Below, in pieces: positions 406 to 18,275 of a DNA stretch of 64,000 bases. The notes below the pieces were generated by a model. It was given only the letters and a program-made list of their open reading frames with translations. It made no database searches and was not told the DNA's origin. The stretch is taken from the IMG/VR virus record IMGVR_UViG_3300026875_000002; one strand, written 5' to 3'. The DNA is from a virus. Position 1 is the first letter of the stretch, and each line of letters starts with the position of its first letter. Made by a program: the position numbers and the translations under genes.

Positions 406-425
406 TATTATTGATGTGATAAAAA

Positions 426-698
426 ATGAATAAAAATGTTACTAAAGATATAAATTATGATCAATTTCCTGATGTGGACGATGAATTAGAACAAAAATAC
501 GTGAATGGTGGAGGAGTGTTATCTACTCCAAATGAAATCCACTTGATTTTATTATCTAATCGTATTATTCCTGGAAAACCATTAAGTATCTCAAGAAAAG
601 CAGAAATGGATATTATTTTAACACCGGAAACTGCTGAACAAATTGGTCAATTATTAATTTCTGAAGCTCAAAAATATAAAAAATCATCTAAAAATTAG
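426..698 (+). CDS. DUF3467-like small protein
   Basis: Y-V-N-G..STPNEIHLIL..IILTPETAEQIGQLL resembles the DUF3467 pattern as recalled. Confidence 0.5.
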   Translation: MNKNVTKDINYDQFPDVDDELEQKYVNGGGVLSTPNEIHLILLSNRIIPGKPLSISRKAEMDIILTPETAEQIGQLLISEAQKYKKSSKN

Positions 699-707
699 GA
701 GGATTAA

Positions 708-1007
708 ATGTCAAATGAAGAAGAATTTTCTGAATATGAAAAGAAAGTTCTGATAATTTTGGGTGGTTTGAATATTTCAAAAAATCGTAATGTTCAAAGA
801 CAAACAATTTTGAAACGTGTTCCTAATAAAATTCATAAGGAATGTAATAAAGCTATTGAGGATTTAATTCGTAAAGGGTATATTGGATATTATAGACGTC
901 CGGATAATTTGATGGTTTCTCAAAAAGGTCGAAAAGTTACTCATGATTTAAAAGATGAGGATAATAAAAAGAAATATGGTGATTTACGTATTTTATTGAT
1001 ATTTTAA
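708..1007 (+). CDS. Small basic winged-helix-like protein
   Basis: RBS AGGAGG; EKKVLIIL..AIEDLIRKGYI..VSQKGR wHTH-like pattern. Confidence 0.5.
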   Translation: MSNEEEFSEYEKKVLIILGGLNISKNRNVQRQTILKRVPNKIHKECNKAIEDLIRKGYIGYYRRPDNLMVSQKGRKVTHDLKDEDNKKKYGDLRILLIF

Positions 1008-1144
1008 TTATATAAATTATGATATTTACATTAAAAGATGATTATGAAAAATGTACCATCACAATAAAAAAATAATAATATAAGTAAATCAAATTATTCA
1101 ATTTTTTAAAAAGCAATTGATGATAAAAAAGGGGGGTATTCCTA

Positions 1145-2317: not shown

Positions 2318-2365
2318 TAGAATAAATAAAATATATATTCTTAATAGGATGCTGAAGATGATACT

Positions 2366-2608
2366 ATGACTAAATGGATGGAAAAAAATGAAGCTATGAA
2401 GGTGGGAAATCTTCCCGTAAATTTTGGGGAAATTCAAGCAAAGAAGTCTATGGAATCATTAAATAATATTATTGATGATATATTACAGGGAGATCAAGAA
2501 GACTCTGATGATTCATATCAGTTTAATGAATCTTTTATAAAAACCATAAAGGATAGGGAAAAACAAAAATCTATTGAAATCACTGATTTAAATCAATTAT
2601 TTGAATGA
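2366..2608 (+). CDS. Antitoxin (RelB-type, by position)
   Basis: Acidic 80-aa ORF directly upstream of RelE-like gene; C-terminal IEITDLNQLFE. Confidence 0.6.
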   Translation: MTKWMEKNEAMKVGNLPVNFGEIQAKKSMESLNNIIDDILQGDQEDSDDSYQFNESFIKTIKDREKQKSIEITDLNQLFE

Positions 2609-2617
2609 TATGATATA

Positions 2618-2884
2618 ATGTATAGAACAACGTTTAAAGAAGGTTTTTTAGAGGATACTAAGAAGATTAAAGATAAAAAATCTCAGGAAAATCTTAAAAA
2701 GAAAATTGAAGAAATTGCAACTATTTTGGAGTTTAGTCCTAATCATTTTAAACCTCTGAAAAAACCTTTGCAGGGGTATTCTCGTGTTCATGTTAATGAT
2801 TCATTTGTGTTGATTTTTAGAGTTTATTCTGATGATAAGACTGTTGATTTTGTTAAGTATGCTCATCATGATGAAGCATATTGA
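2618..2884 (+). CDS. relE: RelE/ParE-family toxin (mRNA interferase-like)
   Basis: TTFKEGFLEDTKK..KPLKKPLQGYSRVHVNDSFVLIFRV..VKYAHHDEAY is the RelE/StbE pattern. Confidence 0.85.
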   Translation: MYRTTFKEGFLEDTKKIKDKKSQENLKKKIEEIATILEFSPNHFKPLKKPLQGYSRVHVNDSFVLIFRVYSDDKTVDFVKYAHHDEAY

Positions 2885-2951
2885 TTTACTTATTTTTTTT
2901 TTAATTATTTTATTATTATATATAATATAATATAATATAATCTAATCTAAT

Positions 2952-3260
2952 TTACACTTGAAATTATACTATATGTTTTATTTCTAGTATAACACCTTCC
3001 CGCGAATATAGGGGCACCCCTAATGTACATCATGTACATCGTTCCTTCGAAACAACCATATATTCTTTAAAAAGACAATTAAAATGGCAAGAGAGTATAT
3101 TTTAATTAAATAAGATGTATATTATCATTAAATTATGTATAATCTATTTAAATTTATATTTAATATTTGGATGTACATGATGTACATCTATAAGAAGGGT
3201 ATTTTTTGGAAAAATAAACTTACATTTGAAATAAAACATGTAGTAATATTACAAGTGTAA
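2952..3260. promoter_or_regulatory. Candidate replication origin with three mini-ORB-like motifs and an AT-rich core
   Basis: TTACACTTGAAAT 2952-2964, TTACATTTGAAAT 3220-3232, reverse TTACACTTGTAAT 3248-3260. Confidence 0.5.
3023..3187. repeat. 18-bp perfect inverted repeat flanking 129 bp
   Basis: ATGTACATCATGTACATC 3023-3040 and its reverse complement 3170-3187. Confidence 0.9.
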
Positions 3261-3275
3261 ATAAATCAAAACATT

Positions 3276-3322
3276 TATATAGTACTTCTTTTATATTCTA
3301 ATATAGTACTATATAGTACTAT
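3276..3322. promoter_or_regulatory. Repeated ATAGTACT(AT) palindromic operator-like sites upstream of AbrB-like gene
   Basis: TATATAGTACT near 3276 and ATATAGTACTATATAGTACTAT 3301-3322, abutting the TTG start. Confidence 0.5.
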
Positions 3323-3511
3323 TTGAATTTAAAGGAAGTGAAAAAAATTGAAATAAAGAAAACAAGTACGACTATGAAAATTAATAAAACATCTAATGCT
3401 TTAAGAACAAATATACCAGTAGATATACAAAAACAAATGAATTTAACAGAAAAAGATTTGATTTTATGGCATTATGATGGAAAAGATGTTAGAGTGAAAA
3501 AAGTAGAATAA
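3323..3511 (+). CDS. AbrB/SpoVT-type transcription regulator
   Basis: SNALRTNIPVDIQKQMNLTEKDLILWHYDGKDVRVKKV swapped-hairpin signature; TTG start. Confidence 0.8.
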   Translation: MNLKEVKKIEIKKTSTTMKINKTSNALRTNIPVDIQKQMNLTEKDLILWHYDGKDVRVKKVE

Positions 3512-3656
3512 ACTAACAACTTCCAAATTACAAGTTTATTCTACTATTGATACATTAAAATAGCAAAAAACTATAGTAATGTAATTACTATTTTTATTAA
3601 TTACATTACTTATAATTTTTTACTTATTTTTTGATGTGTCCATTAGGAGGCATATT

Positions 3657-3998
3657 ATGTCTTTAAAACAGTGTCGATTAAATATGGAAGCAGATTTGTG
3701 GAACAAGTTTTCTGAAGTATGTCGAAATGAGAATACGAACTTCTCTGAAAAAGTCAGAGAACTCATCACCAATTATATTAACACGAATACAGAGGAAACC
3801 GTGGACCTCAGTGAAGTCTACGACCTCATAGATAGGATCGTCCAAAGGAGTGGTCATATCTCTGTAGAATGTATACAAAGAAACACCACCACAGGACAAG
3901 AACAAGCAGTACTCAAGTACTGCAAACAAAAAAATTACCCAATCGTATCCGAGAAATGGTACGAGGAAGGACGCGCGCACAAATGGGAAAACTGGTAA
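3657..3998 (+). CDS. Ribbon-helix-helix protein
   Basis: RBS AGGAGG before ATG 3657; CRLNMEADLWNKFSEVC..FSEKVRELITNY RHH pattern. Confidence 0.65.
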   Translation: MSLKQCRLNMEADLWNKFSEVCRNENTNFSEKVRELITNYINTNTEETVDLSEVYDLIDRIVQRSGHISVECIQRNTTTGQEQAVLKYCKQKNYPIVSEKWYEEGRAHKWENW

Positions 3999-4033
3999 CC
4001 ACAAATTGAATTGAATTATAGAAGGGGAGACTC

Positions 4034-4540
4034 ATGAATGAATGGAACGAATTCAAAAAAGAAATAACCACCAACATAAAAAAACTACAAAAAAAATACA
4101 ACCAGGAGGGCAACACAGAAATAAACACCCTCCTAAGAAAACTACAAAGACAAAAAAACTACAAAGAAATAAACACACTACGAAGAGAACTATACACACA
4201 AATAGACAAACACATTACACCCGAAATACACCTAATATGCAGTGTCAACCGTAAAACCAAAGATGGAATAATCTACGAATCAATAAACCCACAAATAATA
4301 GAAGACATCACAGACAAAAAAATCAGAGAACTAATAGAATATCAAAGACAATACTGCCACGATGAACGCTACAACATAGAATTCATCATGGAAAAAGGCA
4401 TACTAAACAATAGTCAATATGGATCATACACAACCATAGAAAAAAGAGACTGTACTCAGTATGTTATGGGATTACTGGAAAACCTAGAATTCCATACAGC
4501 ATATGAACAATACACCCAGCAAGGAGTTGCACAAGAATGA
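4034..4540 (+). CDS. Hypothetical protein
   Basis: 168-aa ORF with RBS AAGGGGAG; stop overlaps next start. Confidence 0.75.
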   Translation: MNEWNEFKKEITTNIKKLQKKYNQEGNTEINTLLRKLQRQKNYKEINTLRRELYTQIDKHITPEIHLICSVNRKTKDGIIYESINPQIIEDITDKKIRELIEYQRQYCHDERYNIEFIMEKGILNNSQYGSYTTIEKRDCTQYVMGLLENLEFHTAYEQYTQQGVAQE

Positions 4541-4653
4541 AAAACCTAGACAGATGGAGTACTAGTATGAAGTTAGAAGAAAAATTAATCTTTAAAATAT
4601 TAAGAAAACTAAAATTACTTGACCAGAGGGATATTAATACATTCTTCAACTAA
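4537..4653 (+). CDS. Small hypothetical protein (38 aa)
   Basis: ATGA overlap with upstream stop; below ORF-track cutoff. Confidence 0.4.
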   Translation: MKNLDRWSTSMKLEEKLIFKILRKLKLLDQRDINTFFN

Positions 4654-4671
4654 ACTAAAGGGAGAGGTATT

Positions 4672-4830
4672 ATGTATAGTAAATTAGTTGAATTAAATAA
4701 AATTCGGACAGCTATACTCTATGGAGAAGTAAACTATGAATATTACACATACTGGCTACATAAGTATGGTAAATATTATACTAAAAAAGAATTAAAAGAA
4801 TTAGAAAAATTATACAGGAAGTGGGAATAA
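4672..4830 (+). CDS. Small hypothetical protein (52 aa)
   Basis: RBS GGGAGAGG; TAATG coupling to next gene. Confidence 0.55.
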   Translation: MYSKLVELNKIRTAILYGEVNYEYYTYWLHKYGKYYTKKELKELEKLYRKWE

Positions 4831-5054
4831 TGAATACAAAAACAATATACAATGCATTATTACGAAACTATAAAGACTTTTTAGAAGTATATCATGCTAT
4901 AGAAAAGGAAATAGACAAATATGAGAAAAAAGATTCCGATAAATATCATGAGGATATTTATCACCTTAACGCTCAACATTACCTATTAAACCCGTTAAAA
5001 AAGGAGTATCAGAAAATACTTCAAGAATTCAAGGAAAGCTACGAGGTGGAATAA
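4830..5054 (+). CDS. Hypothetical protein
   Basis: TAATG-coupled start and end. Confidence 0.65.
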   Translation: MNTKTIYNALLRNYKDFLEVYHAIEKEIDKYEKKDSDKYHEDIYHLNAQHYLLNPLKKEYQKILQEFKESYEVE

Positions 5055-5152
5055 TGAAGGGGGATGATGCAGTATTCATAGTAGGACTACTTGCCCTGTT
5101 CATCTGTCTATATATAGTGTCAAGGTATCATGCCCTTGCGTTTTGGTGGTGA
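5054..5152 (+). CDS. Small membrane peptide (32 aa)
   Basis: MKGDDAVFIVGLLALFICLYIVSRYHALAFWW; RBS GAGGTG; coupled start. Confidence 0.5.
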   Translation: MKGDDAVFIVGLLALFICLYIVSRYHALAFWW

Positions 5153-5156
5153 TATT

Positions 5157-5594
5157 ATGATGGATTACAGTGTGTATATACTCGACTATGAGGAGGAAAC
5201 GGGCAAGATCATACCTAGCCGGCAGCGTGTGATGCGTTTTCTCAACTTCGTGCAGACAAAGAATGTTCCCATAACAGAGTGGATCAATACATTCTATGAG
5301 TATCAGGATTTATTTTTGGATAAATTAAGTCCAAAATCAAAAATAGTATACAGAAGTAATATCATTAGATTCATAAAATACACCATGGAACACTTTCACG
5401 GAAAGCAGGAAAGTGTTATACAAGCACATGACCACGGGGAAAACACGATATTAAAAAGTGTACTTGAGAAAGAGAAACAAGAGAAACAATCCCTGTCGAA
5501 AATTGGTGAAGTTACAAGTAAACCTATACGAAAAGATGAAAAAAGGAAGAAGAAGCATACTACGAGGATAGTGAATCATTGGAGGTACATATAA
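5157..5594 (+). CDS. Hypothetical protein (weak similarity to integrase SAM-like helices)
   Basis: RBS GGTGGTGA; LSPKSKIVYRSNIIRFIKY segment. Confidence 0.6.
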   Translation: MMDYSVYILDYEEETGKIIPSRQRVMRFLNFVQTKNVPITEWINTFYEYQDLFLDKLSPKSKIVYRSNIIRFIKYTMEHFHGKQESVIQAHDHGENTILKSVLEKEKQEKQSLSKIGEVTSKPIRKDEKRKKKHTTRIVNHWRYI

Positions 5595-5962
5595 TGATAA
5601 CACACGAAGGATTAATGAAGATTTATAAACAAGAAATGGGACGAGCAAAATTGGCGGAAGTCCCATCAACATTCTATGAGGACTGCCGAGATATTATACG
5701 TAGAACCACTGAGGCCTATAAGAAAACATTAAATCCCCTCCAAAGAAGGTTAATCAATAATTACACGAATATCATAGCACAAATACAAACCAGAAGATAT
5801 GAAAAAATAGTTTATGCTGCACTAAATGAAAAAACGTTACAATATATGGTAGGAAGTGAAAAAAACCTCTACCATGACATAAAGAAATTTAATGAGAATA
5901 AAGAGAATATAACAGAAGGAGAAGAAAATGATACAAAATTCAACATACACTACAGCAGATAA
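5594..5962 (+). CDS. GINS-family (Gins15/51 A-domain-like) protein
   Basis: LMKIYKQE..KLAEVPSTFYED..IQTRRYEKIV..EKNLY matches the archaeal GINS helical domain; RBS GGAGG. Confidence 0.65.
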   Translation: MITHEGLMKIYKQEMGRAKLAEVPSTFYEDCRDIIRRTTEAYKKTLNPLQRRLINNYTNIIAQIQTRRYEKIVYAALNEKTLQYMVGSEKNLYHDIKKFNENKENITEGEENDTKFNIHYSR

Positions 5963-6692
5963 AATACACAATGAATCTCACATATATAAGAAGATTCAAA
6001 GAGGAAAAAAGTATTTCCTCAACTCCAAAGTAAAACAATCTGGAAGAAACAACTTCCAGAAATACAACTACTTTGAACTAGGAGATATAGAACCAATACT
6101 CCTAGACTTCTGTGAAAAAGAAAACATCACTACTCGTTTTAACTTCACGCGTAGTGAAGCACTCCTTATCATACGAGATGAGGAAACAGGGGAAGAAGTA
6201 TACTATAGTATACCATTACCCGTAGTTGAAACAAAAGATCCCAGAAAAGCAATGCAAGAAATTGGGTCTTTACAGACATATGCTATGAGGTACTTGTACC
6301 TCCAAGCATTTGAAATAGTAATAAATGATTCAATTGATGTACAAGATAATACCCATAAACATCCTGAAAAGAATACCACCAATAAAACAAGAAATACTAC
6401 TCCATTAAAAAGTAGTATTCCAAAACAACATAATAATATAACAAGAAACGCAAACACAAGTAACAATACCCAGAAAGTAAGAGATGACAATGAAATAAGC
6501 AGAACAGAATTAGAATATGCAATCAAGAACCTCCAAAAAGAACTCAAAAAGGAGGGTTTGACACGTGAACCTGAATTTGTCATAAATCGTGCTGTGCAGA
6601 AGTATGGTAAAGATAGTGACATGACCCGCGGGATAAGGAAACTCTACAAAAAAGTAGAGAATAATTATGATAAAAAATATGTGACATATTAG
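5928..6692 (+). CDS. ERF-family ssDNA-annealing protein
   Basis: KQSGRNNFQKYNYFELGDI and GSLQTYAMRYLYLQAF..D motifs. Confidence 0.85.
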   Translation: MIQNSTYTTADKIHNESHIYKKIQRGKKYFLNSKVKQSGRNNFQKYNYFELGDIEPILLDFCEKENITTRFNFTRSEALLIIRDEETGEEVYYSIPLPVVETKDPRKAMQEIGSLQTYAMRYLYLQAFEIVINDSIDVQDNTHKHPEKNTTNKTRNTTPLKSSIPKQHNNITRNANTSNNTQKVRDDNEISRTELEYAIKNLQKELKKEGLTREPEFVINRAVQKYGKDSDMTRGIRKLYKKVENNYDKKYVTY

Positions 6693-6704
6693 GAAAGGGT
6701 ATTC

Positions 6705-6718
6705 TAAAAGCGTTACAT
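6705..6718 (+). promoter_or_regulatory. Conserved upstream motif TAAAAGCGTTACAT (copy 1)
   Basis: Exact copy at 56034-56047; one-mismatch copy at 7858-7871; core CGTTACAT at 8960-8967. Confidence 0.6.
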
Positions 6719-6765
6719 GTATTATAGAATAAATAAAGAAGAGTAGGAACCATGGGGTGATAATC

Positions 6766-7152
6766 ATGGTACAAACAGTATTCATAATACAAAATAATAA
6801 AATAAACGGAGTACAAAAGATAGAAGCACCAAAGAAAAAAGTTAAAATAATTTATAAACAAAAAAGATGTCATTACTCTGGATGTAATAACCGTTTTACA
6901 CCAAGGGCACCACACCAACTCTACTGCTCAGATGAGTGTAGGTACTATAGTGATATAGACCATACACTCGAAAGAGTACGGAAATTCCGAAAGAAATATG
7001 GAAATGTTCTTCGAGAATTACCAGGATATGTGGGTATGTCTCTTGGTACAGGAAAACTTGGAGAACATAGATGTGATAGTATGGAAGAGGAGAAACGGAA
7101 GATACAACAAGAGATAAGAGCACTCGGCCTTACTTCTGTTGTATCTTATTAA
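6766..7152 (+). CDS. Zn-finger protein (C-x4-C..YCSDECR)
   Basis: Cys pattern; paralog of 8228-8491; RBS GGGGTGA. Confidence 0.7.
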   Translation: MVQTVFIIQNNKINGVQKIEAPKKKVKIIYKQKRCHYSGCNNRFTPRAPHQLYCSDECRYYSDIDHTLERVRKFRKKYGNVLRELPGYVGMSLGTGKLGEHRCDSMEEEKRKIQQEIRALGLTSVVSY

Positions 7153-7232: not shown

Positions 7233-7811
7233 ATGATACATATAGAAACAAGAAGTGTGTTATTTGTAAGAGGATATAGTGATGAGTTATTTAAATATCA
7301 GTATACTTCAAAAGAAAAAATGATTCTAGAAGATGACTCATATATTACACGACGAATAGACTCTACAAATCCTAGTGGAACATGGAATTACTATAATAAA
7401 AACAATAAATTCATAAGAAAAATACCAATAGAGGAATATCCATTTAAAGGAGTAATACCCGAGAATGGAGATGAAGAAGATGATCAATATGGAGTAATAT
7501 ATTTTGCAGATGTAGACATAACCCTAAAGGATTTTAAAAAAGAAAAATTAGACATAACCATGCTTAAAAAAGTACAAGAAAAAATAAATAAACAAATTAC
7601 TCTTTCAAACTTAGAAAAAGGTTTGAAAATATTCTTCTTAAAAACCATTGAAGAAGGAGAAAAAGGATGGTGCCCTAATGATCGTTGGTTACCTTGTACT
7701 ATTTGTAGTTTATTTAACGATCTTGACAAGACTAATGCAAGGATTAATGATAAATTTTGGGATTATTTAATGAATAATCTTGACACAATCTATGAATTAT
7801 CTCAATCATGA
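7233..7811 (+). CDS. Hypothetical protein
   Basis: 192-aa ORF with RBS AGGAGGG. Confidence 0.8.
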   Translation: MIHIETRSVLFVRGYSDELFKYQYTSKEKMILEDDSYITRRIDSTNPSGTWNYYNKNNKFIRKIPIEEYPFKGVIPENGDEEDDQYGVIYFADVDITLKDFKKEKLDITMLKKVQEKINKQITLSNLEKGLKIFFLKTIEEGEKGWCPNDRWLPCTICSLFNDLDKTNARINDKFWDYLMNNLDTIYELSQS

Positions 7812-7961: not shown

Positions 7962-8336
7962 ATGAAAATATACAACAAACCCGGAAGAGAACACAACACA
8001 AACAATGAAGAACCCATGAAAAAAGGAATAACAAAAGTAGACAATGGATACACAATACGACACACAATCAACGGAAAGACATACTACTATGGATGCTACA
8101 AAACACTAGAAGAAGCAACAAAGATAAATCATAAACTACTCACAACAGTAAAAGACATAAAACTATACAGCACACAACACACAAAATTACACGGAAAAAA
8201 ATACAAACAAAAAATAATAAGAGAATTATGTGGAAAAAAAGAAAACACAAATGTAAATGGTGCGGAAAAACATACTACCGCAGACAAAAAAACACACAAT
8301 ACTGCAGTGAAGAATGCAGAAAACAAGGAACATTAG
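7962..8336 (+). CDS. AP2-like DNA-binding protein (3' part overlaps next ORF)
   Basis: GITKVDNGYTIRHTINGKTYYYGCYKTLEEA is AP2-like. Confidence 0.6.
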   Translation: MKIYNKPGREHNTNNEEPMKKGITKVDNGYTIRHTINGKTYYYGCYKTLEEATKINHKLLTTVKDIKLYSTQHTKLHGKKYKQKIIRELCGKKENTNVNGAEKHTTADKKTHNTAVKNAENKEH

Positions 8337-8491
8337 AAAAAAACCGAAAACGTGTAGAAAAATACAGAAAAAAATATCCACAACAACAAGTAGGAACAAG
8401 CAACATAAGCCAACACAGAAACAAGGAAAATGATAATAACAAAGAACAAAACATCATAGAAAAAGAGAAAAGAAGAATTCATATCAAATAA
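8228..8491 (+). CDS. Zn-finger protein (CKWC..YCSEECR), possibly fused to upstream ORF by -1 shift
   Basis: Cys pattern; paralogous to 6766-7152. Confidence 0.7.
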   Translation: MWKKRKHKCKWCGKTYYRRQKNTQYCSEECRKQGTLEKNRKRVEKYRKKYPQQQVGTSNISQHRNKENDNNKEQNIIEKEKRRIHIK

Positions 8492-8510
8492 AATTACTAC
8501 ACTTTATACA

Positions 8511-8585
8511 TGTGTATGGAAGTATATGCATATAATGACTAACCAATTAATGGTTTGGTGGTTTGAATCCACCCCTACACAACCA
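8511..8585 (+). ncRNA. Degenerate tRNA-like element (75 nt, ends ACCA)
   Basis: T-arm GGTGG-TTTGAAT-CCACC; acceptor TGTGTA/TACACA; AACCA/TGGTT arm; non-canonical D arm and loops. Confidence 0.4.
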
Positions 8586-8708
8586 TTTTATATGAATGAT
8601 ACGTACCAGTACTAATTGGTTAAAAATGTGTTGTAAAAAAGGCACAGCGTATCCCCTAAGAATAAAACATGATCTTATAAAAAAAAGTAGAATTGGAGGT
8701 AATAAAAC

Positions 8709-8915
8709 ATGACAGAAATACCTAAAGCACCAATAACAAGAATAGTAAAAAATGCAGGAGCAGAAAGAATAAGCAAAGAAGCAGAACAAAAAATAGTAGA
8801 AGCAGTAGAACAATACACCAATAAACTAGCATTAGCAGTAATAGACCTAGCAAAACACGCAGACAGAAAAACAATACAAGTAGAAGATGTAGAACTAACA
8901 CTCAAACACTTCTAA
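8709..8915 (+). CDS. Archaeal histone (HMf-type)
   Basis: EIPKAPITRIVKNAGAERIS..LAKHADRKTIQVEDVELTL; RBS GGAGGT. Confidence 0.95.
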   Translation: MTEIPKAPITRIVKNAGAERISKEAEQKIVEAVEQYTNKLALAVIDLAKHADRKTIQVEDVELTLKHF

Positions 8916-9063
8916 AACCTCAACTCCTAAATTCACCCCCTCACAAAAAAGTTACTTTTCGTTACATGATACATATGAAGATAATAAAAAATAGTAAATG
9001 ATATCATGCACGTTGGAGTAACAGGACACAACAAGATAACAAAAATCTTTTGATGAAAAATGA

Positions 9064-9525
9064 TGGTAACGACAGGATAATATAAAAATAATAATAATAA
9101 TAATGATTATTTCATTAAATTTCTTTGTAAAAAGGAAACAAACTATACAATAGTAAAATTATAATCTAATCAAATAAAAAAAAGTGATATCTACACTAGT
9201 AGAAAAGTATGAACTGTAAACATAAAGAAAAATTGAAACCGAGTCCTATTTTTCTTTGGATAAAGCTGATGAAGAGTAAATATTATTTTGATTATAAAAC
9301 AGATTATACCAGACCCCTAGTTGTAAATATTATTTTCATACGTCTAGTCCTGGTTGATATTTTATATTACAGCAGACGCATAATCCCCCTTAATGGATAT
9401 ATTTCTATTGTATACTAGTGAATTTATTTAATATTGAATAAATTATACTCATAGTTTAGTATATTAAATTAGTATATTAAAAATAATGTAAAAAAAAAGT
9501 TGGGGGTTCGATTCCCCCGTTACCA
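9064..9525 (+). ncRNA. Candidate structured ncRNA with tRNA-like 3' end
   Basis: Nested 8-11 bp helices in 9144-9444; T-arm GGGGG-TTCGATT-CCCCC at 9502-9518. Confidence 0.4.
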
Positions 9526-9565
9526 AATAAATCCTTTACGAGATAATTTCAATGAAGATTCAAAA

Positions 9566-9766
9566 ATGACAGAAAAAGAAGTGAAATACAAGAAAATATA
9601 CGTAAAAGTATGTCCAGAATGTAGAAACACGATCTTCAAAAAGGATTACTCCAGAAATGAAGTATACTGTAGTGCTTGTGGACTGGTATTAATAGCTCCT
9701 CCCGTATCAGGAATTATAACACCAGGATTCAAGATAATTACAATAAAAATACCTATATTAAAATAA
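9566..9766 (+). CDS. Stand-alone TFB/TFIIB-type zinc-ribbon protein (66 aa)
   Basis: CPECRNTIFKKDYSRNEVYCSACGLVL matches the TFIIB N-terminal ribbon; ATG at 9566 preferred over TTG 9500. Confidence 0.8.
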   Translation: MTEKEVKYKKIYVKVCPECRNTIFKKDYSRNEVYCSACGLVLIAPPVSGIITPGFKIITIKIPILK

Positions 9767-9780
9767 AATTTATTAGATGC

Positions 9781-9812
9781 TCCCATTTAGTTGTGAAAAA
9801 CTAGGGGGAGCT
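9781..9812 (+). terminator. Hairpin after TFB-ribbon gene
   Basis: GCTCCC..AGTT-GTGAA-AACT..GGGAGC stem followed by TTATTTT. Confidence 0.4.
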
Positions 9813-9859
9813 TATTTTCTGTAACACAAGCAGATTACCATATTTTTTAATTCTCTCTT

Positions 9860-10370
9860 ATTATTAAGAGTCTCCAAAGGGAGTCTGTGGAGAAAGTAAA
9901 ATGGTTAAAATACGTTGGATATATTTTTTTTGAATAGTATTGGGAGAAAAAGAAGAATATTTCATAAAAAAAAATTTAGGGGAAATCATCATGTTTCAAG
10001 GAAAAAGTATCCATATCCTAGCATGGAAGAGATCTATACGTGGAATTAATGAATGAATCAAAATGGTTTTTTTTATAATAAATGTTTTTTTTAAAGTTGT
10101 AAATTTTTATCAGAGAAAATTATCGTTATATGTTTTTTCATCACCCTGTGAAAAAAAGTAAAAGTAGTCTTTGCTGCAATTATGCTACGTCAGTAATAAA
10201 TATTTAACAGTATATTATGTATCCTTGAAAAAAAAGAAAAAGGGAAATCCCCCCATAATTTCCTTATCATTTGTTCCTATAATCTCCCATTTGTATGTTC
10301 ATTCCACCAGGACATACTCACTATTCAAATATATTAGGAAATAACCATTTATTTTTCACCCTCCTTAATT
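9860..10370. ncRNA. Candidate large structured ncRNA (strand unknown)
   Basis: Five perfectly nested long-range helices of 6-10 bp; no ORF of 60 aa or more. Confidence 0.45.
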
Positions 10371-10517
10371 TTATTAAATGATTTTCTACTTGGGAGTTTA
10401 AAAGTTACTCCGAAAATCAAAATACCCTAATCACCCCCCCCCCCAAGGAAGAGTATAACAGGCTGAATCCATATGTACGTGAACCGAAGAACAGGTCAAA
10501 GAATCACAGACCACGAA

Positions 10518-10622
10518 ATGAATAAGAAACTAAAAAATAATCCCCACTACACACACCCATACTCAAATGAAATCACAATAGAACATGAAACGTGGACCTA
10601 TATAAAAAGTAGGCTAGACTAA
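10518..10622 (+). CDS. 34-aa mini-ORF resembling N-terminus of 11183-11536
   Basis: MNKKLKNNPHYTHPYSNEIT vs MKKKIKNNPYLNEIT. Confidence 0.35.
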   Translation: MNKKLKNNPHYTHPYSNEITIEHETWTYIKSRLD

Positions 10623-10624
10623 AA

Positions 10625-10969
10625 ATGAAATATATTTCAAAGCTAAATAAGAAGTATTGTATTTACAAATGGTGTAATGGGAAAAATGTGTATTTTGGAA
10701 CATTTAACACACTAAAAGAAGCCCAGAAATATAGGGATTTCCTAATAAATCATGATTGGGATTTAAAGTATAGGAAAAGAAGTCCACGAAAATATAATCT
10801 CCCAAAATATATCTATAAGAAACCTGGGGAAGACATGTTTATTATCAGGAAAACAGTGGATTATCAGCAAGTACATCTTGGTTATTATAAAACATTACAA
10901 GAAGCCATTAAAGAAAAAGAGTTCTATGAGAGTATCAACTGGGATTTAGACTTACTCGACTTATACTAG
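10625..10969 (+). CDS. Tandem AP2-like domain protein
   Basis: Two repeats of KYI..Y/FII.K......F/LG.F/Y.TL.EA....L/F...W. Confidence 0.7.
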   Translation: MKYISKLNKKYCIYKWCNGKNVYFGTFNTLKEAQKYRDFLINHDWDLKYRKRSPRKYNLPKYIYKKPGEDMFIIRKTVDYQQVHLGYYKTLQEAIKEKEFYESINWDLDLLDLY

Positions 10970-11182
10970 ATTTTAACCCTTATTTTATTGGATTTTATGA
11001 TTATGTGGGGATATAATAAATTATAATTTTTTCAACAAGATCATACAAATACACTTCCCCCCATGTATTATAATATTAAGAGGTAAAAAAAATACAAGGA
11101 ATATCCACCAAATCCACTTAAATAAACTATTCACCATTAATTATTAAGAATATCTAATTAATCTAGAGGGAGAACCCCACAA

Positions 11183-11536
11183 ATGAAGAAAAAAATAAAA
11201 AATAATCCATACTTAAATGAAATAACATTCCAAACATTCACAGACACATACAAACGTAAACATGAAAACAATGAATTATACACACAACAATACCATCAAC
11301 TCACAAAAAAAATAGCACAATACCTACAAACCCCCCACCAAAACATAATAATAAACATACCCGACAAAATAATCACAATAAACATAGAACAAGACAGACT
11401 CATACTCCTAACACTACAAAAACTAACAGAACTAACAGAATACCTCGGAGTAGAAGACATCCGCATCTACACCCCAAGTAGAAACACACTCATAATAAAT
11501 TACAACAATAAAGAAGAAGAGGAAAAAGACACATGA
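11183..11536 (+). CDS. Hypothetical protein
   Basis: RBS GAGGGAG; ATGA overlap with next gene. Confidence 0.7.
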   Translation: MKKKIKNNPYLNEITFQTFTDTYKRKHENNELYTQQYHQLTKKIAQYLQTPHQNIIINIPDKIITINIEQDRLILLTLQKLTELTEYLGVEDIRIYTPSRNTLIINYNNKEEEEKDT

Positions 11537-11781
11537 CCACAAATATCAATCTACAATCACTAATAGTAGGAATACTAGGAATATCACTAATAAGTATGAT
11601 ATACCTACACTACGACACAGAACTAATCCTAGCCCTAATAACAGGACTAGTAGGAGTACTTGTACCAGTCAAAAACACAAATACTATAACAACACAAGAA
11701 GCAATAAAACAACTAGAACAAGACCCCACAATACAAGTACAAACAGAAGAGATGAACAATGATAAACAAGAATACTCCTAA
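11533..11781 (+). CDS. Two-TM membrane protein, holin candidate
   Basis: Two hydrophobic segments and a charged C-terminus in 82 aa. Confidence 0.55.
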   Translation: MTTNINLQSLIVGILGISLISMIYLHYDTELILALITGLVGVLVPVKNTNTITTQEAIKQLEQDPTIQVQTEEMNNDKQEYS

Positions 11782-11812
11782 AACCAAAACAAAAAACATA
11801 ATGGAGGGAAAA

Positions 11813-12118
11813 ATGCAAAACAAGAAAATAGAAGGAAATGAAACAATACAAGACTATCGATTAACCCTCCTAGAAAAACAAATAGCAGAAAACCAGAAAA
11901 TAATAAACGAAAACCAAAAACAACTCATAACAAAACTAGAAAGAATAGAAACACAATTCCAAAAAGACCATGAAAGAATAATACAACACGAAGCACACCT
12001 ACAACAATTAGACACAAAACTAGAAAAATACGATAAATACCTCTTCATGATCATAAGCACAGTCATCGCACAAATATTTGTATTAATAACACAATTAATA
12101 CCACACATATTCCACTAA
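11813..12118 (+). CDS. Coiled-coil protein with C-terminal TM helix
   Basis: Heptad-like region then YLFMIISTVIAQIFVLITQLI; RBS GGAGGG before ATG 11813 (ORF open from 11759). Confidence 0.65.
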   Translation: MQNKKIEGNETIQDYRLTLLEKQIAENQKIINENQKQLITKLERIETQFQKDHERIIQHEAHLQQLDTKLEKYDKYLFMIISTVIAQIFVLITQLIPHIFH

Positions 12119-12145
12119 AAAAAAGGGGAAGAAGGTGAAAACTAA

Positions 12146-12265
12146 ATGGAATCCATACACATATTCAACATAACCCTCACAATATTAAACATAATAATAT
12201 GCTTAATATGCATATACATACTCACAAACATGATAAAATACATGAAACCCCACAAAGAAGAATAA
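12146..12265 (+). CDS. Single-TM peptide (39 aa)
   Basis: MESIHIFNITLTILNIIICLICIYILTNMIKYMKPHKEE; RBS AGGTGA. Confidence 0.5.
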   Translation: MESIHIFNITLTILNIIICLICIYILTNMIKYMKPHKEE

Positions 12266-12407
12266 AAAATAACAAGACATATACTCATAAACCAAAAAAA
12301 CAACCCAAAAAAATAACAAGTACCATAATTAAAAAATTTTTTTTTAAACCACGAATTGAATAAAAATGTAACTTTCAAAAAAAAACTGCAAAAGAAGGAA
12401 ATTCAAG

Positions 12408-12986
12408 ATGACAAAACACAAATTTGACCAACAACCCCACGAATCAGAAAAATTATACAATAGATTCAAAAGATACAGAGCAAAACACAAATCCATCACT
12501 CTTGAAAAATTTGCAGAAGAAGAAGGAGTAACAAAATCAACAATAGCACAAAACAGTGCAAAATGGAATTGGGATGCACGAGCAGATGCATGGGATGCAT
12601 ATGAAGCACAAAAATTATACAAGAAAGTTCAAGATGACTTCGAAAAACTCAACAAGAAAGGATTACATGACATGGATAACTTCATTGATGAACTTAATGA
12701 ACTAAGAAAAGATGCAATGAAACGATTCAGAAAAGAAGCAATTAACAGTACTACTTGTCTTAATATTATGAAGAATTATATTACCTGTTATCGTGAGGCT
12801 ACTGAAATTTATTATATTAATTGTCGTAAACCTTTATTCCCTCCAGATATTGTTGAAGAAGATAAGGGTGCTGATGATAAAATTGATAATATCTTATCTG
12901 AAAATGAGGCTCATAATCATGTTGTACAGTTACGTAAAGAGGGGAGTGCTAAGATTATGAGACCTGGATCTAATATTTCAGATTAA
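12408..12986 (+). CDS. terS: Terminase small subunit (putative)
   Basis: N-terminal HTH (ITLEKFAEEEGVTKSTI..WNWDAR); directly upstream of terL. Confidence 0.65.
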   Translation: MTKHKFDQQPHESEKLYNRFKRYRAKHKSITLEKFAEEEGVTKSTIAQNSAKWNWDARADAWDAYEAQKLYKKVQDDFEKLNKKGLHDMDNFIDELNELRKDAMKRFRKEAINSTTCLNIMKNYITCYREATEIYYINCRKPLFPPDIVEEDKGADDKIDNILSENEAHNHVVQLRKEGSAKIMRPGSNISD

Positions 12987-13125
12987 GTTTTATGTGTTTG
13001 TTCAGCATTTCTATTTTTTTATTGAACACCTCTGATTTAAATCCCCCTATTTATTTTTTAGTAATATACATTGTTTACAATATTATCTTATTTTATACAT
13101 ATTTTATAACTGAGTGATTATTACC

Positions 13126-14559
13126 ATGTTAGTCAACTACGATAAATTAAACCAAACCATCACCGAAAGTGAACAACAAACATATATAGATGAAGTTCTA
13201 CGCAATCCATACATTCCTCATGGTAATAAAAAGGAACCATGGAAAAAAGTAGACCCATTCTATGAACAAATGTTAATACTCATGGATGAATGTGACAAAA
13301 AATACCCTGATTATAAATTAATCAGTGGAGGAGCATTTAGTGGAAAAAGTCAAATGACAGCAATCATGGCAGCAAGATACCTCATATATCCTAACTATCG
13401 TGGACTAATACTACGAAACACATATAAACAAGTAGTAAGTAGTGGCGGAGCAGTTGACAAACTCCGTGGATGGTTAGGTGATAAAAAAAGACTTGGAAAA
13501 TACACATGTAAAGAAAACAAAACAGAAATGTTCTTTGAAGCACCCAACGGGGCAAGAATATACTACAGTTACTGTGACACACCAGAACAAATGGATAAAA
13601 TAAGAGGAACAAGTTACCATGACATATTCATAGAAGAAGCAAGTGAAATACCTGGAGACATACTAGAATTTCTACCCCGCTCCATACGACCACACAGAGG
13701 AAAAGATTATATTCCTGAGGGATATGTACTTAACAGTAACCCATCATTTGGGCCTGGTGTTGACTGGCTTCATAAAATGTTTCTTGATGAAGATAGTCCT
13801 CATAAACATTACACATTAGACCTTATGATGAATCCCTTCGTGGATAGAATTGCATATGATAAAAGACTTGCAGAAATGAGTCCAGTACAACAAGCATTCA
13901 TGCGTTTTGGTGACTGGAATTATGTTCCTGATGGTGGACTTCTTCTTACACGTGAACAATTAGAAGAAGCTGAAATTGACCCCCTTGAATTTGATTATAA
14001 TGATACTATTTTTAGTTTGATTGGTGTTGATATTGCTGGTGAAGGTGATGATTACACTAGTCTTACAAGTATACTTTACCTTAAGAATGGTAATGTTATT
14101 CTTGATGATAATATTCTTCTTAATGATAGTACCCTTGAGGAACAAGTAAAACATTTCGTAGAAGAACAGACTGAGAAAACAAAACTCAATCGTATCATCT
14201 TTGAAGAAGAAGGAGGAGGAAGTGCAACCTATGCACTTAAACATTTCAAGCATGTACTAAGTGATATTCAGAAAAAGAATTATTTCAGTGTGAAAATGAA
14301 ACCAGTACGAAAAAATAAATTTGAAAGAGCAAGACCACTAGCATATGGTATACGAAATGGATTTGTACGTATCAACAAGTTTATCCCAAACAAGCAGTTA
14401 CTACAAAATCAATTCATGTATGTAAATCCAGATAAGCAGATAATGAAAAAACATAAAAGTCCGGATTTCCTTGATAGTGCCACTATCGGATATAATAGTC
14501 TTAACAGTATGTATAATCTTGAAGAATACAATAGAAAAATTAGGAGAAATAATAAATGA
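13126..14559 (+). CDS. terL: Terminase large subunit
   Basis: Walker A GGAFSGKS, Walker B IFIEEASE, nuclease GVDIA..D and SPDFLD; ORF open from GTG 13114. Confidence 0.92.
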   Translation: MLVNYDKLNQTITESEQQTYIDEVLRNPYIPHGNKKEPWKKVDPFYEQMLILMDECDKKYPDYKLISGGAFSGKSQMTAIMAARYLIYPNYRGLILRNTYKQVVSSGGAVDKLRGWLGDKKRLGKYTCKENKTEMFFEAPNGARIYYSYCDTPEQMDKIRGTSYHDIFIEEASEIPGDILEFLPRSIRPHRGKDYIPEGYVLNSNPSFGPGVDWLHKMFLDEDSPHKHYTLDLMMNPFVDRIAYDKRLAEMSPVQQAFMRFGDWNYVPDGGLLLTREQLEEAEIDPLEFDYNDTIFSLIGVDIAGEGDDYTSLTSILYLKNGNVILDDNILLNDSTLEEQVKHFVEEQTEKTKLNRIIFEEEGGGSATYALKHFKHVLSDIQKKNYFSVKMKPVRKNKFERARPLAYGIRNGFVRINKFIPNKQLLQNQFMYVNPDKQIMKKHKSPDFLDSATIGYNSLNSMYNLEEYNRKIRRNNK

Positions 14560-15995
14560 CTACATTAAATGAATTATTTCCAGAATTAGAAAATTTTCAA
14601 CAAGAATTAGAGGAATATCTTACACTTGATGAAAGTAGTACAACACAAAAAAGAGACACAATCCAACATGAATATCTTAAACCTATTGTTGATCCAAGAT
14701 TATCAAGGTATGTGTATCATCGTTGTGATGACCTTCAAAAAGTTTTAACAGTATATGCAAAAGATGTTATTCTTAATGATTTTTCATTAGAAGATGTTGA
14801 TGAAAACGATGAAAACATTGAATTAATCAATACAGTATGGAATAATAATGAAAACAAAATACAATTATACTATGCAGTACTTGAATACTTCATATATGGA
14901 TATGGAGCATTAGAAATTATTCAGCAAAGAAAAGGATATTCATTCCAACAAATACCTGCTCATACAATTAAAATAAGAGTAGAACCATTAACAAGTACTG
15001 TTACAGGTAATACATATCAATTTTATTTTCTTGAACAAGAAATTAACGGAATCAAAACACTACTAAAATTCAGTCATCTTGATTATACTCTTCTTGAAAA
15101 ATATGGTGATAAGGGTATTCTTGAGCAACTAGATTATGATAATCTTAATGAATGTCTCTGGTTTGGAGGATGTAATGAAGACCAATTCTTTGATATTCCT
15201 GCATGGGAAAGTTGTAGTGAGAAGATATATACCAACATTGCAATCAAGAAGATGAATCTTAAGAAAATTAATAAGGGAAATGTTCCTGCGGGCGTATTAA
15301 TGTTTGAAGGACCTCCAGCATTACCTGACCCTGATAATCCTGATGAAAAACGTATTGATCATATTCTTGAAGAGAATATTGATGCTACAGAGGGAGGTAC
15401 CATGTTTACTTATATTACTAGTGATAGTGAGGAGCGTGGCGTTACTATGCAGTATCAATCTCTTGTTGATAATAATTATGAATATTTTAATGGGTTAGAA
15501 GAAGCTAATCGTAAAAGTATTTATAAATGTATTGGTGTTCCTCCTATTCGTTTAATGCTCATGGATCAAAAAGAATCTATGAATAGTGATAAAAGTGATA
15601 AGGTTTTCAGTATTTATTGTGATAATGAAATACGTCCAACACAGATGCTTTTTAAGTCACCGATTAATCAGTGGAATAGGAAATATTTAAAGATTACTTC
15701 AAGTATTGTTATTGATACTCCCGAGTTTGTTGATAAGACAGGTATTCGTATTGATAATATTCTTAAAGGTTTTAATGCTGGATTATTAACTCTTGGACAA
15801 GCTCTTGAAGGATTAGTTGATATTTATCCTCAACTTGACCTTCAAAGGAATGTGGATGATCCAGAATTACTGAACATGAGATTCTATAATGGTAATGCAC
15901 TAGGTACCAATAATAATGTTAGTGATAAAGAGGAACAATACACTGACATGATTAAAGGTATGGAATCCTACCTTAACAATATGGACTCAATATAA
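14556..15995 (+). CDS. Portal protein
   Basis: Follows terL; 479 aa; YFIYGYGALEII, NKGNVPAGVL and IGVPPIRL motifs. Confidence 0.85.
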   Translation: MTTLNELFPELENFQQELEEYLTLDESSTTQKRDTIQHEYLKPIVDPRLSRYVYHRCDDLQKVLTVYAKDVILNDFSLEDVDENDENIELINTVWNNNENKIQLYYAVLEYFIYGYGALEIIQQRKGYSFQQIPAHTIKIRVEPLTSTVTGNTYQFYFLEQEINGIKTLLKFSHLDYTLLEKYGDKGILEQLDYDNLNECLWFGGCNEDQFFDIPAWESCSEKIYTNIAIKKMNLKKINKGNVPAGVLMFEGPPALPDPDNPDEKRIDHILEENIDATEGGTMFTYITSDSEERGVTMQYQSLVDNNYEYFNGLEEANRKSIYKCIGVPPIRLMLMDQKESMNSDKSDKVFSIYCDNEIRPTQMLFKSPINQWNRKYLKITSSIVIDTPEFVDKTGIRIDNILKGFNAGLLTLGQALEGLVDIYPQLDLQRNVDDPELLNMRFYNGNALGTNNNVSDKEEQYTDMIKGMESYLNNMDSI

Positions 15996-16001
15996 TGTGG
16001 G

Positions 16002-17864
16002 ATGGGATGTGATTACCCTATGCTACATAAAAAGAAATTATTAAAGGTAATTGATTACCTTTACACTGCCAAGGCATATGATGATGCAATGACTCATTAC
16101 ATGATGGATGCCATTGATGATGCTACTCTTTTTGAACTTCTTCGTAACCCCTCTCTTTTTATGAATATTGCCCTTTATAATCAGTTTACACGTAAATATT
16201 TTCCACAAATAAACACATCCAGTGATATTCAAAGAGCTGGAACACCCCTTCATAGAACAATAATTGAACAAACAATAAAACAAAACATGACAACACAGGA
16301 ACAACGAAGACAAAGAATATATAAAATTAACTATGAACAACTACTACGAGACTCTAACAGAATACGACAAAACAAACAAGTACCTAACACAACAACAAAC
16401 AATGTACGAATACATGACATACAAAACAAGACAACAAGAGACCTCACAGAACAACATGAAAAACTAATAAACGCCCAAATAGACAAACTAGAAAAAGAAT
16501 TCAGAGAACTAGTAGAACAAGATGAACCAATAATCAAGGGACCAAACATAAAAGAAAACAAGGAAATAAAAAAACTAAGAAAAGAACACAACAAACAAAT
16601 AGCGAGACAAAACAAGAGATTAGCAAAAAACAAGGACAACAGAGTCAAATGGATGACAGAACGCTTGAAAGATAAGCCCCACATCTACAAAGTATGGAAT
16701 CAAACACCAAATCCAAAGACAAGACATACTATAACAGATGGACAAAAAGTACCACTAGAAGAAAAATTTGAGGTAATTAATGATAAAACAGGACAAATAG
16801 ATATGATGGATTACCCTGGAGATTGGAAGGGTAGTCCTGCAAATACTGCTAATTGTTTATGTGAATTAAGTTTTACTGATGATGACAGTAATGTGTATGA
16901 TCCTAAGAAGAAATCAGTACGAGAGGAATATCTAGAATTACAGAAAAAAGTAGATAGACTAGAAGAAGGATTTGGTGAACGAGCAATAAAATTGATTAAT
17001 GATGCGACTTTTCTAGGAAATGATAATGATATAAAATGGGTATTAAAACATTTGGGGATAGGTTACAAAGAAAGGAATAGACTACATATATCTGATATTA
17101 ATAAAGCGTTAGATGTACGTGATAAGTATATTCAAGAGGGATATTATGAATCTGATTTTAATTTAGAAAAAGCATATGGTAAAATATATATGGAACATGT
17201 GACAGCTAATATAAATAATTTATTAGTTGATAGTGTTTCAAAAAAAAGTAATTCACATAGTTATAATATTTTATCTAAACATTATAACCGTAGAAGAATA
17301 GAAAGGGATAAGGCGCTATATTCCCCTGAAGAACTTAAAGCTTTGGATTTTTATTCAAAACCTATTTTTTATTCAACATTTAACGCATGGCAACGTCAAA
17401 ATTTTTCAAAAAAAGTATTAGAAGATGAAACTAAAAGGGAACACAGTCTTTTAAGAAAGTATGATGCCGATTCTTTAGAAAAGATCTTTAAAAAAAATTA
17501 CAATATTTTAAAAGATATGAGTATTCCATTAAACCAGGATATTATATTATATCATGGACAAGGAAATTTATATCCTAGCGATGGGAAGGAATTAAAAGAG
17601 AAGGGAGTGTGGAACAATACTTTAAGTTTAGGTGCTTTTAAGCAAAGTGGGTTAAAATATGCAACTAATAATGGTGAAAAAATGATATTATTCAAGGTAT
17701 ATATTCCAAAAGGTACAAGAGTAACACCTATATTACAATTAAGTAGTAAACTTGGTAATACTGTTGAATCAGAATTATTACTTGATAGAGGACATGAGTA
17801 TAAAGTAGATCATTATTACTATGATGAAGGCTGTGCTACTAGAGATGTAAGATTAATTAATTAA
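16002..17864 (+). CDS. MuF/SPP1-gp7-like head protein fused to C-terminal ADP-ribosyltransferase (VIP2-like) domain
   Basis: MuF: KVWNQTPNPKTRH..DGQKVPLEEKF..NCLC; ART: IILYHG, YIPKGTRV, ESELLLDRGHEYKV. Confidence 0.8.
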   Translation: MGCDYPMLHKKKLLKVIDYLYTAKAYDDAMTHYMMDAIDDATLFELLRNPSLFMNIALYNQFTRKYFPQINTSSDIQRAGTPLHRTIIEQTIKQNMTTQEQRRQRIYKINYEQLLRDSNRIRQNKQVPNTTTNNVRIHDIQNKTTRDLTEQHEKLINAQIDKLEKEFRELVEQDEPIIKGPNIKENKEIKKLRKEHNKQIARQNKRLAKNKDNRVKWMTERLKDKPHIYKVWNQTPNPKTRHTITDGQKVPLEEKFEVINDKTGQIDMMDYPGDWKGSPANTANCLCELSFTDDDSNVYDPKKKSVREEYLELQKKVDRLEEGFGERAIKLINDATFLGNDNDIKWVLKHLGIGYKERNRLHISDINKALDVRDKYIQEGYYESDFNLEKAYGKIYMEHVTANINNLLVDSVSKKSNSHSYNILSKHYNRRRIERDKALYSPEELKALDFYSKPIFYSTFNAWQRQNFSKKVLEDETKREHSLLRKYDADSLEKIFKKNYNILKDMSIPLNQDIILYHGQGNLYPSDGKELKEKGVWNNTLSLGAFKQSGLKYATNNGEKMILFKVYIPKGTRVTPILQLSSKLGNTVESELLLDRGHEYKVDHYYYDEGCATRDVRLIN

Positions 17865-17905
17865 GAAAAACACAGTAATATATAACAACAAAATTTTGGT
17901 GAAGA

Positions 17906-18226: not shown

Positions 18227-18275
18227 CTCTCTTTCACTCTCTTTTTTTAACTTTATTATTTTTTTTGTTTTTCAG
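18227..18275 (+). terminator. Oligo-T archaeal-type terminator
   Basis: CTCTCTTTCACTCTCTTTTTTT..TTTTTTT directly after stop. Confidence 0.45.

Follow-up and report, generated by a model that had tools for sequence, protein, structure and literature searches.

A tRNA-like module enclosing a long variable body: a candidate t-element in a virus of Methanosphaera-type methanogens

The locus and the virus that carries it

We analyzed a stretch of 64,000 nt of viral DNA (IMG/VR record IMGVR_UViG_3300026875_000002), referred to below as the window, in which a structured element of ~460 nt lies on the + strand between an archaeal histone gene and a gene for a zinc-ribbon protein. Bases 1-6243 of the window are identical to bases 57758-64000 (6,243/6,243), and the virus genome, which is 57,757 bp long and wrapped in the window, is therefore complete and either circular or circularly permuted. 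The + strand carries nearly all the genes of this 57.8-kb virus. The following genes were annotated with Pfam and PHROGs:

5928-6692: ERF recombinase
8709-8915, + strand: archaeal histone (PF00808, E 1e-15), ending 149 nt 5' of the element
9566-9766, + strand: TFIIB-type zinc-ribbon protein of 66 aa (PF08271, E 3.4e-8), starting 40 nt past the discriminator of the element
12408-12986: terminase small subunit
13114-14559: terminase large subunit
14556-15995: portal
52487-53629: tyrosine integrase
Elsewhere in the virus genome: a prohead protease and a baseplate J protein
Also present: two proteins with pseudomurein/peptidoglycan-binding domains, one of which also has a C39-type peptidase

The named relative of the terminase is from Methanosphaera (70% identity), a related provirus (L002) was found on a 101-kb contig of a Methanosphaera MAG, and the stretch itself was found in DNA runs from animal gut and rumen metagenomes. 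From these observations and its gene content, we conclude that this is a temperate head-tail virus of a Methanosphaera-type methanogen, and the preliminary description of this sequence, which had taken the DNA for viral and archaeal, is borne out. No tRNA-related enzyme was found among the virus ORFs in the Pfam and PHROGs scans, and named phage records presented no match to positions 8000-20000 (near search) or 8900-9600 (distant search of a phage collection). At another place in the genome (2366-2884), an ORF of 80 aa precedes a gene for a ParE/RelE-type toxin (2618-2884; PF05016, E 2e-7), and the two likely represent a viral toxin-antitoxin pair.

The element is composed of the following parts, given in the literal register of the assembled sequence and in the register of the related elements described below:

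9064..9071, + strand: 5' acceptor strand (literal register, TGGTAAC at 9064-9070; family register, GGTAACG at 9065-9071, preceded by T as in L002)
9072..9080, + strand: D-loop-like GG motif ACAGGATAA, directly 3' of the 5' strand
9072..9501, + strand: variable body of ~430 nt with nested helices, including a non-genic-looking ORF (9209-9418)
9456..9481, + strand: two tandem copies of TTAGTATATTAAA, TATA-like and self-complementary
9502..9518, + strand: T-arm GGGGG / TTCGATT / CCCCC, which fits the t-element motif GGTTCRANYCC
9518..9526, + strand: 3' acceptor strand and discriminator (literal register, GTTACCA at 9519-9525 and A9526; family register, CGTTACC at 9518-9524 and A9525)

The preliminary description had reported the T-arm at 9502-9518, followed by GTTACCA (9519-9525) complementary to TGGTAAC (9064-9070), and this can be read directly in the sequence. 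The two ends are complementary over 8 nt (TGGTAACG at 9064-9071 and CGTTACCA at 9518-9525) if the final C of the C-run is included. The inner helices listed in the same description are all found both in the sequence and in the MFE fold: 9144-9153/9405-9414 (10 bp, perfect), 9160-9167/9301-9308 (8 bp), 9168-9178/9283-9294 (with a bulge), 9224-9233/9248-9257 (10 bp), 9421-9428/9437-9444 (8 bp) and the hairpin formed by ACCAG (9310-9314) and CTGGT (9351-9355). The MFE of 9064-9525 is -88 kcal/mol (shuffles: -70.0 +/- 4.5; z = -3.96; 0/100 shuffles as good), and this fold contains the 7-bp closing stem together with all of these helices. Folded alone (9072-9500), the body shows more structure than shuffled sequences on the + strand (z = -2.61; 1/100) and no such excess on the - strand (z = -0.27; 38/100). 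The early caution that the 7-bp closing pair alone could be due to chance was justified: TGGTAAC is found three times in 57,757 nt, which corresponds to a chance probability of ~0.02 within 440 nt and is by itself not decisive. A closing stem over ~440 nt is also kinetically less sure than one over 60-100 nt.

The GG that follows the 5' strand could contact the T-loop, in the role of the D-loop; at the same place, relatives present AAAGGAAC, AAAGGCAAC, AAAGGAAAAG, AAAGGAAAC, AAAGGGTTA and ATAGGGAAC. The 24-mer composed of the T-arm and the acceptor is unique in the virus genome and has no exact match in IMG/VR. A protein-coding body was rejected, the ORF at 9209-9418 being a low-complexity hydrophobic string with no Pfam match.

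Our view of RNA is limited to the assembled contigs of four runs, in which ends and strand are not readable and DNA carry-over is possible. The body is overlapped by contigs (9191-9377 and 9364-9480) of two RNA libraries, each from a different study; given the possible DNA carry-over, they weakly suggest that the body is transcribed. The stretches that are not covered by RNA-library contigs (e.g., 8870-9150 and 9528-9715 in strain X17) are uninformative. After the zinc-ribbon gene, the non-coding stretch 9794-10359 is covered by RNA-library contigs of two studies (X17, 9794-10359; X18, 10132-10359), and both contigs end at 10359, where a DNA contig continues, which weakly hints at an abundant non-coding RNA ending there. 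The stretch begins just past a long hairpin (AGCTCCC...GGGGGAGCT, ~9779-9813).

Related elements in other viruses and proviruses

Relatives were gathered with terminase and zinc-ribbon profiles from IMG/VR, metagenomes, GTDB genomes and 314 host-family genomes. We counted T-arm closures on both strands of 47 non-redundant sources (392,176 nt), defining a strict T-arm as a GC-rich 5-bp stem with the loop TTCRANN and its partner as a 7/7 match with at most one G.U, located at most 800 nt upstream. We found that 12 of the 13 strict T-arms have a 7/7 upstream partner, 30-438 nt away. Shuffled acceptors yielded a mean of 1.03 and a maximum of 4/13 (500 shuffles), and both the reversed-acceptor control and the downstream-search control yielded 1/13. 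The sole T-arm with no partner has a G.U-containing stem and lies on the opposite strand of L052. The closure of the T-arm by the acceptor is not due to chance, since 12/13 related T-arms are closed alike vs ~1/13 in the controls. The T-arm and acceptor closure noted in the preliminary description is a real tRNA-like module, which is evolutionarily maintained and can enclose a long body. The distances from the 5' strand to the T-arm are as follows:

Window: 438 nt
L011: 230 nt
L053: 202 nt
L044: 88 and 129 nt (two elements)
L054: 94, 106 and 107 nt (tandem), plus a fourth element with a degenerate loop
L001: 78 and 30 nt (two elements)
L002: 62 nt (element at 7721-7807)
L061: 58 nt (element at 2448-2530)

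The window contains the longest-bodied member of this family (~430 nt, vs 30 to ~230 nt in the relatives).

All the acceptor cells (84/84) and T-stem cells (60/60) of the 12 elements, 144 in total, present standard pairs; this set was itself chosen by pairing, and the controlled count of 12/13, not the tally of pairs, constitutes the real test. Variation in the acceptor is found at positions 2 and 4-6, where both strands change and each position has two to five pair types. The T stem follows the pattern NNNGG/CCNNN, in which the first three pairs covary and G53-C61 and G52-C62 are invariant. Pairs were counted by script, with no family covariance model; the stem sequences differ between members, and both strands of the stem change. 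The T-loops are TTCGATT, TTCGAAT, TTCAAAT or TTCAATT, and 10 of the 12 elements have A as discriminator. The acceptor 5' strand reads GGTnnnG, and the 3' strand CnnnACC, in seven of the 11 elements of the relatives, and A(A/T)AGG is found directly 3' of the 5' strand in six relatives. The MFE folds of the relatives recover the acceptor and the T-arm. MAFFT left the 5' strands of eight compact members out of register, and a looser scan seeded on the AnAGG motif yielded mostly noise and no further clear member.

Two of the relatives also have long bodies. L011 and L053 are orthologous over bodies of ~200-230 nt and have in common a D-arm-like motif, GCTCAGAGGTATACA, at mid-body, which we did not find in the window. 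They also keep a hairpin abutting the T-arm despite its wholly different sequence, and their acceptor pair 4-69 shows a compensatory difference (C-G / T-A). These bodies with conserved motifs show that the family tolerates long inserts. The idea that the long body is the conserved part of the element did not hold: the module of the relatives encloses 30-230 nt, no homolog of the window's body was found in any of the loci compared, and L001 has no element at this position.

We further examined the register of the stems. The C-run of the window (9514-9518) has five C as assembled, which is either real or an assembly slip. With five C, the T stem has only 4 bp in the family register, and in the literal register the acceptor stem starts with U1-A72, compared with a G-C start in all 11 relatives; the stem still folds with five C in the MFE of 9064-9525. 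A natural strain from another study (X15), in which the element is nearly unchanged, has one extra C in this run (place 9513). With six C, X15 presents a 5-bp T stem, a 7-bp acceptor stem GGTAACG/CGTTACC, G1-C72, G7-C66 and A73, which is the family consensus, and the MAFFT alignment to the relatives requires a one-base gap in the C-run of the window. The 3' part of the window's element (9450-9525) aligns with L001 7620-7703 (AGTTTAGTA, tandem repeat, A-run and T-arm), where the counterpart of the tandem repeat is AGTTTAGTA plus two copies of GTACAAATGT. At the 5' end, the window reads T-GGTAACG-ACAGGA vs T-GGTGTTG-AAAGGA in L002, and thus has the family signature GGTnnnG followed by AnAGG. Against the long form as the functional unit, MAFFT aligns AATATTG of the window to the local 5' strand of the relatives. 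Because of the 8-nt complementarity, the T/ACAGGA flanks, the L001-like 3' part and the register restored by a single C, the distant 5' strand is most likely the true partner of the window's 3' strand. Strain X17 differs around ACCAG/CTGGT (loose end before 9364), which means that strict conservation does not extend to all the inner helices, this one at least being an exception.

Two smaller tRNA-like elements precede the histone gene, as the long element precedes the zinc-ribbon gene:

8598..8654, + strand: second element, GATACGT ... GCGTATC followed by C, homolog of L001 6312-6366
8511..8585, + strand: third, degenerate element, with T-arm GGTGG TTTGAAT CCACC at 8557-8573, a 6/7 acceptor and ACCA at 8582-8585

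The second element and its L001 homolog share the acceptor stem GATACGT/GCGTATC and keep both inner hairpins with different sequences, and their folds yield z = -3.59 in the window and z = -3.20 in L001. The L001 copy (6312-6369) has a TTCAAAT T-loop and an encoded CCA (6367-6369), compared with a degenerate T-loop and CCT in the window (8598-8657). The third element presents a weak match to a model of tRNA-shaped sRNA (E 1.8), and its fold is not significant (z = -0.95).

Within the viral genomes, the elements separate the replication/early genes from the packaging genes. In the six elements immediately followed by a gene, the spacing between the discriminator and the next ATG is constant, at 40 nt in the window and L053, 41 nt in L002 and L061 and 46 nt in L011, with 58 nt in L001, and T-runs follow several of the elements that are last in their array. 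Searching the 314 host-family genomes with the family pattern, we found it at four places in two genomes, all of which are known proviral loci, and control patterns yielded no match. As far as this pattern can tell, the elements are associated with viruses and are missing from host chromosomes outside of proviral loci. In L054, a provirus in a complete genome, four tandem tRNA-like elements follow the zinc-ribbon gene (5936-6510; G126:C1, ~1,501,735-1,502,310). The last of them is followed by AATCAATAC and a T-run, and the same trailer is found in L002. This array looks like a cluster of tRNA genes in which every member is a top-half mimic.

L001, whose terminase is 91% identical, lacks the 460-nt region at this position; its zinc-ribbon gene comes closely after a conserved box, which in turn comes closely after the histone genes. 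Neither L001 nor L002 has the region between this box and the zinc-ribbon gene; their homologous elements are located 3' of the zinc-ribbon gene, between ERF/zinc-ribbon and terminase, and the window's element lies before the zinc-ribbon gene. The long form may possibly result from a recent insertion of ~370 nt into a compact ancestral element. Three viruses (window, 8947-8969; L001, 6916-6938; L002, ~6897-6925) have the box, AAAAAGTTACTTTTCGTTACAT (core CGTTACAT), in the interval that separates the zinc-ribbon gene from the histone gene or from whichever gene precedes it; the box is possibly a promoter or operator. L001 has two tandem histone genes (6449-6882) vs one in the window. About 1.1 kb downstream of the element, in a mostly non-coding stretch of 1.4 kb that is missing from the relatives, an ORF of 114 aa (10625-10969) has its only similarity to phage HNH endonucleases in their DNA-binding part (phrog_99, E 7e-10) and looks like the remnant of a homing endonuclease.

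A candidate processing signal and its alternatives

The minihelix formed by the acceptor stem and the T-arm is the part of tRNAs that is recognized by RNase P, tRNase Z and the CCA-adding enzyme. For this reason, we propose that the element (9065-9525, + strand) is a giant-bodied t-element: a mimic of the top half of tRNA, carried by Methanosphaera head-tail viruses and proviruses and by those of related Methanobacteriaceae, that marks cuts by RNase P and tRNase Z. We consider this reading probably correct, if only just. The 7-bp acceptor-like stem would stack on the canonical T-arm, the GG stretch would stand in for the D-loop, and the variable body would replace the D and anticodon arms. The element would be co-transcribed with the neighboring genes, and a cut by RNase P at ~9064/9065 would then set the 3' end of the histone message. 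A cut by tRNase Z past the discriminator (~9525/9526) would free a stable structured RNA of ~461 nt and would give the zinc-ribbon mRNA a defined leader of ~40 nt. We infer both cleavages, as well as transcription over the full length of the element and any role of its body.

The alternative that survives best, although we judge it unlikely, is that a compact tRNA-like element, or a tRNA gene of the virus in decay, was interrupted by ~370 nt of inserted sequence. Its two halves would still match, but the long form would have lost its fold and its function, and any importance would be confined to the local T-arm hairpin. Such a relic would fit a body with no homolog, the lack of the region between box AAAAAGTTACTTTTCGTTACAT and the zinc-ribbon gene in L001 and L002, and a C-run that is one short of the family geometry, and the HNH-endonuclease remnant 1.1 kb downstream points to local rearrangement. 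Against a relic, the element retains a perfect complementarity of 8 nt and the AnAGG motif, and its fold has a closed stem and a body that is structured on the + strand only. Bodies of 202-230 nt, with inner motifs that are conserved, are tolerated in relatives. The distance to the following gene equals the 40 nt of the family, and the element has stayed nearly unchanged in strain X15 from another study.

The TATA-like repeats (9456-9481) raise the possibility of a promoter, in which they drive a start at ~9500. This would leave the 5' strand out of the RNA: the T-arm would be a leader hairpin of the zinc-ribbon mRNA, and the 5' strand would share no transcript with it. An A/T-rich TATA-like sequence indeed lies directly before the T-arm in several members, and the constant spacing to the ATG (40-46 nt) is also in favor of this reading. 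We regard it as improbable: the long-range acceptor pairing, found in 12/13 cases with compensatory change, is not explained at the level of DNA or of a promoter, and no TATA-like run precedes the T-arm in L011, L053 or L054c. The RNA-library contigs (9191-9480), which lie upstream of the supposed start at ~9500, also argue weakly against it.

We give slightly less credence again to an RNA acting in trans. In this scenario, a 461-nt RNA with authentic tRNA ends, CCA-tailed and perhaps charged, would serve as an archaeal functional analogue of tmRNA, or as a decoy or sponge that engages tRNA-binding enzymes of the host or defences directed at tRNAs, and the body would be a strain-specific working part on a conserved handle. 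Set against the t-element reading as a rival, such an RNA (CCA-added, perhaps aminoacylated, and either tmRNA-like or a decoy or sponge for tRNA-binding host factors) seems a shade more doubtful still. An acceptor, a D-loop-like GG and a T-arm around a long structured body correspond to the layout of tmRNA, A73 is found in 10/12 elements, some small members encode CCA (L001 6367-6369), and the tandem arrays of the relatives are followed by T-runs, like independent RNA genes. The tmRNA-like architecture put forward in the preliminary description stands for the acceptor and T-arm, which are formed from both RNA ends and close a long body, but the likeness to tmRNA is limited to this tRNA-like closure. 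The G3.U70 alanine identity pair is absent, pair 3-70 of the window being G-C (literal register) or T-A (family register), and among the 12 members T-A is found in 10 and G.U in none. Neither a tag frame nor pseudoknots were detected, and ARAGORN predicted no tmRNA in the window. The Rfam search that had been proposed yielded no match at gathering thresholds in the window and no tmRNA assignment; the matches to tmRNA models are far below threshold and cover only the T-arm at 9502-9518 (beta_tmRNA, 14.8 bits vs 84; tmRNA_permuted, 13.2 bits vs 47). The body is neither conserved nor constant in length, and it has no conserved tag-like frame, its only ORF looking random.

Finally, fragments of the 3' end of tRNAs are the typical att cores of integrating archaeal viruses and plasmids, and the element resembles them in presenting a T-arm and a 3' acceptor segment in a temperate archaeal virus that encodes a tyrosine integrase. 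That it represents an attP core copied from the 3' end of a host tRNA gene is nevertheless very unlikely, since it has no host tRNA identity, is not adjacent to the integrase (13.6 kb away) and possesses its own complementary 5' strand upstream, for which an att core has no need. No exact match to the 24-mer was found in the genomes of 185,579 species (one per species) and, at up to three mismatches, none in 201 host-family genomes or in the Methanosphaera MAG with the related provirus; it is not a copy of a host tRNA. Moreover, in L001 and L002 the homologous elements have viral genes to either side and are not at provirus ends.

Implications and comparison with known tRNA-like RNAs

To our knowledge, almost nothing is known about how archaeal viruses shape their transcripts. 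If the t-element reading is correct, viruses of gut and rumen methanogens would punctuate their messages with the tRNA-maturation enzymes of their host, like plant mitochondria and haloarchaea, and a tRNA-like handle would tolerate enclosed bodies from 30 to >400 nt. The family would then offer a concrete set of substrates on which to study RNase P and tRNase Z of archaea, compensatory variants found in nature included. It would also explain why tRNA finders miss such genes, and it calls for caution, as isolated fragments of T-arm and acceptor in viral genomes need not be att sites. In open-access texts, we found no account of tRNA-like elements in methanogen viruses.

A canonical or intron-bearing tRNA was rejected: ARAGORN predicted none in the window or in any family member, Rfam gave no tRNA match up to E 10, and manual threading of the 3' flank revealed no anticodon stem. 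tmRNA is not known in archaea. The element is similar to tmRNA in its end-formed acceptor stacked on a T-arm, its reduced D-loop analogue after the 5' strand and its long structured body, and differs from it in that no G3.U70, tag frame or pseudoknots were detected and the body is not conserved among relatives. Other tRNA-like folds let RNase P and RNase Z define the ends of neighboring RNAs, as in the tRNA-miRNA units of the gammaherpesvirus MHV68 and the cellular mascRNA of MALAT1. Unlike the element of the window, these are eukaryotic, have full cloverleaf-like folds and enclose no long body.

The preliminary description had proposed a new tRNA-like-ended viral RNA. Its tRNA-like module is real, but the class of t-elements fits the family better than a new tmRNA-like RNA does. 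The motif GGTTCRANYCC is found in the window (GGTTCGATTCC at 9504-9514) and fits all 12 members, and an acceptor-like stem 3' of the T-arm has its partner upstream, within an otherwise non-canonical cloverleaf. Forner (2007; PMC1920247) describes t-elements of plant mitochondria with this motif as signals for RNase Z and RNase P at mRNA ends. Likewise, Maier/Marchfelder (2014; PMC4326828, citing Holzle 2008, 2012) describe a tRNA-like structure upstream of the 5S rRNA of Haloferax volcanii that is cut by both enzymes in vivo. As far as these accounts go, the present elements resemble t-elements in their GGTTCRANYCC T-arm and acceptor-like stem, in D and anticodon arms that are non-canonical or missing, in their location at message borders (here with a constant spacing to the start codon) and in being missed by tRNA finders. 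Relative to the same accounts, they differ in belonging to an archaeal virus, in forming tandem arrays in the relatives, in enclosing ~430 nt in the window vs a core of tRNA size or smaller, and in that their cleavage is predicted. The element of the window stands out by the length of the body it encloses and by the natural variant of its C-run.
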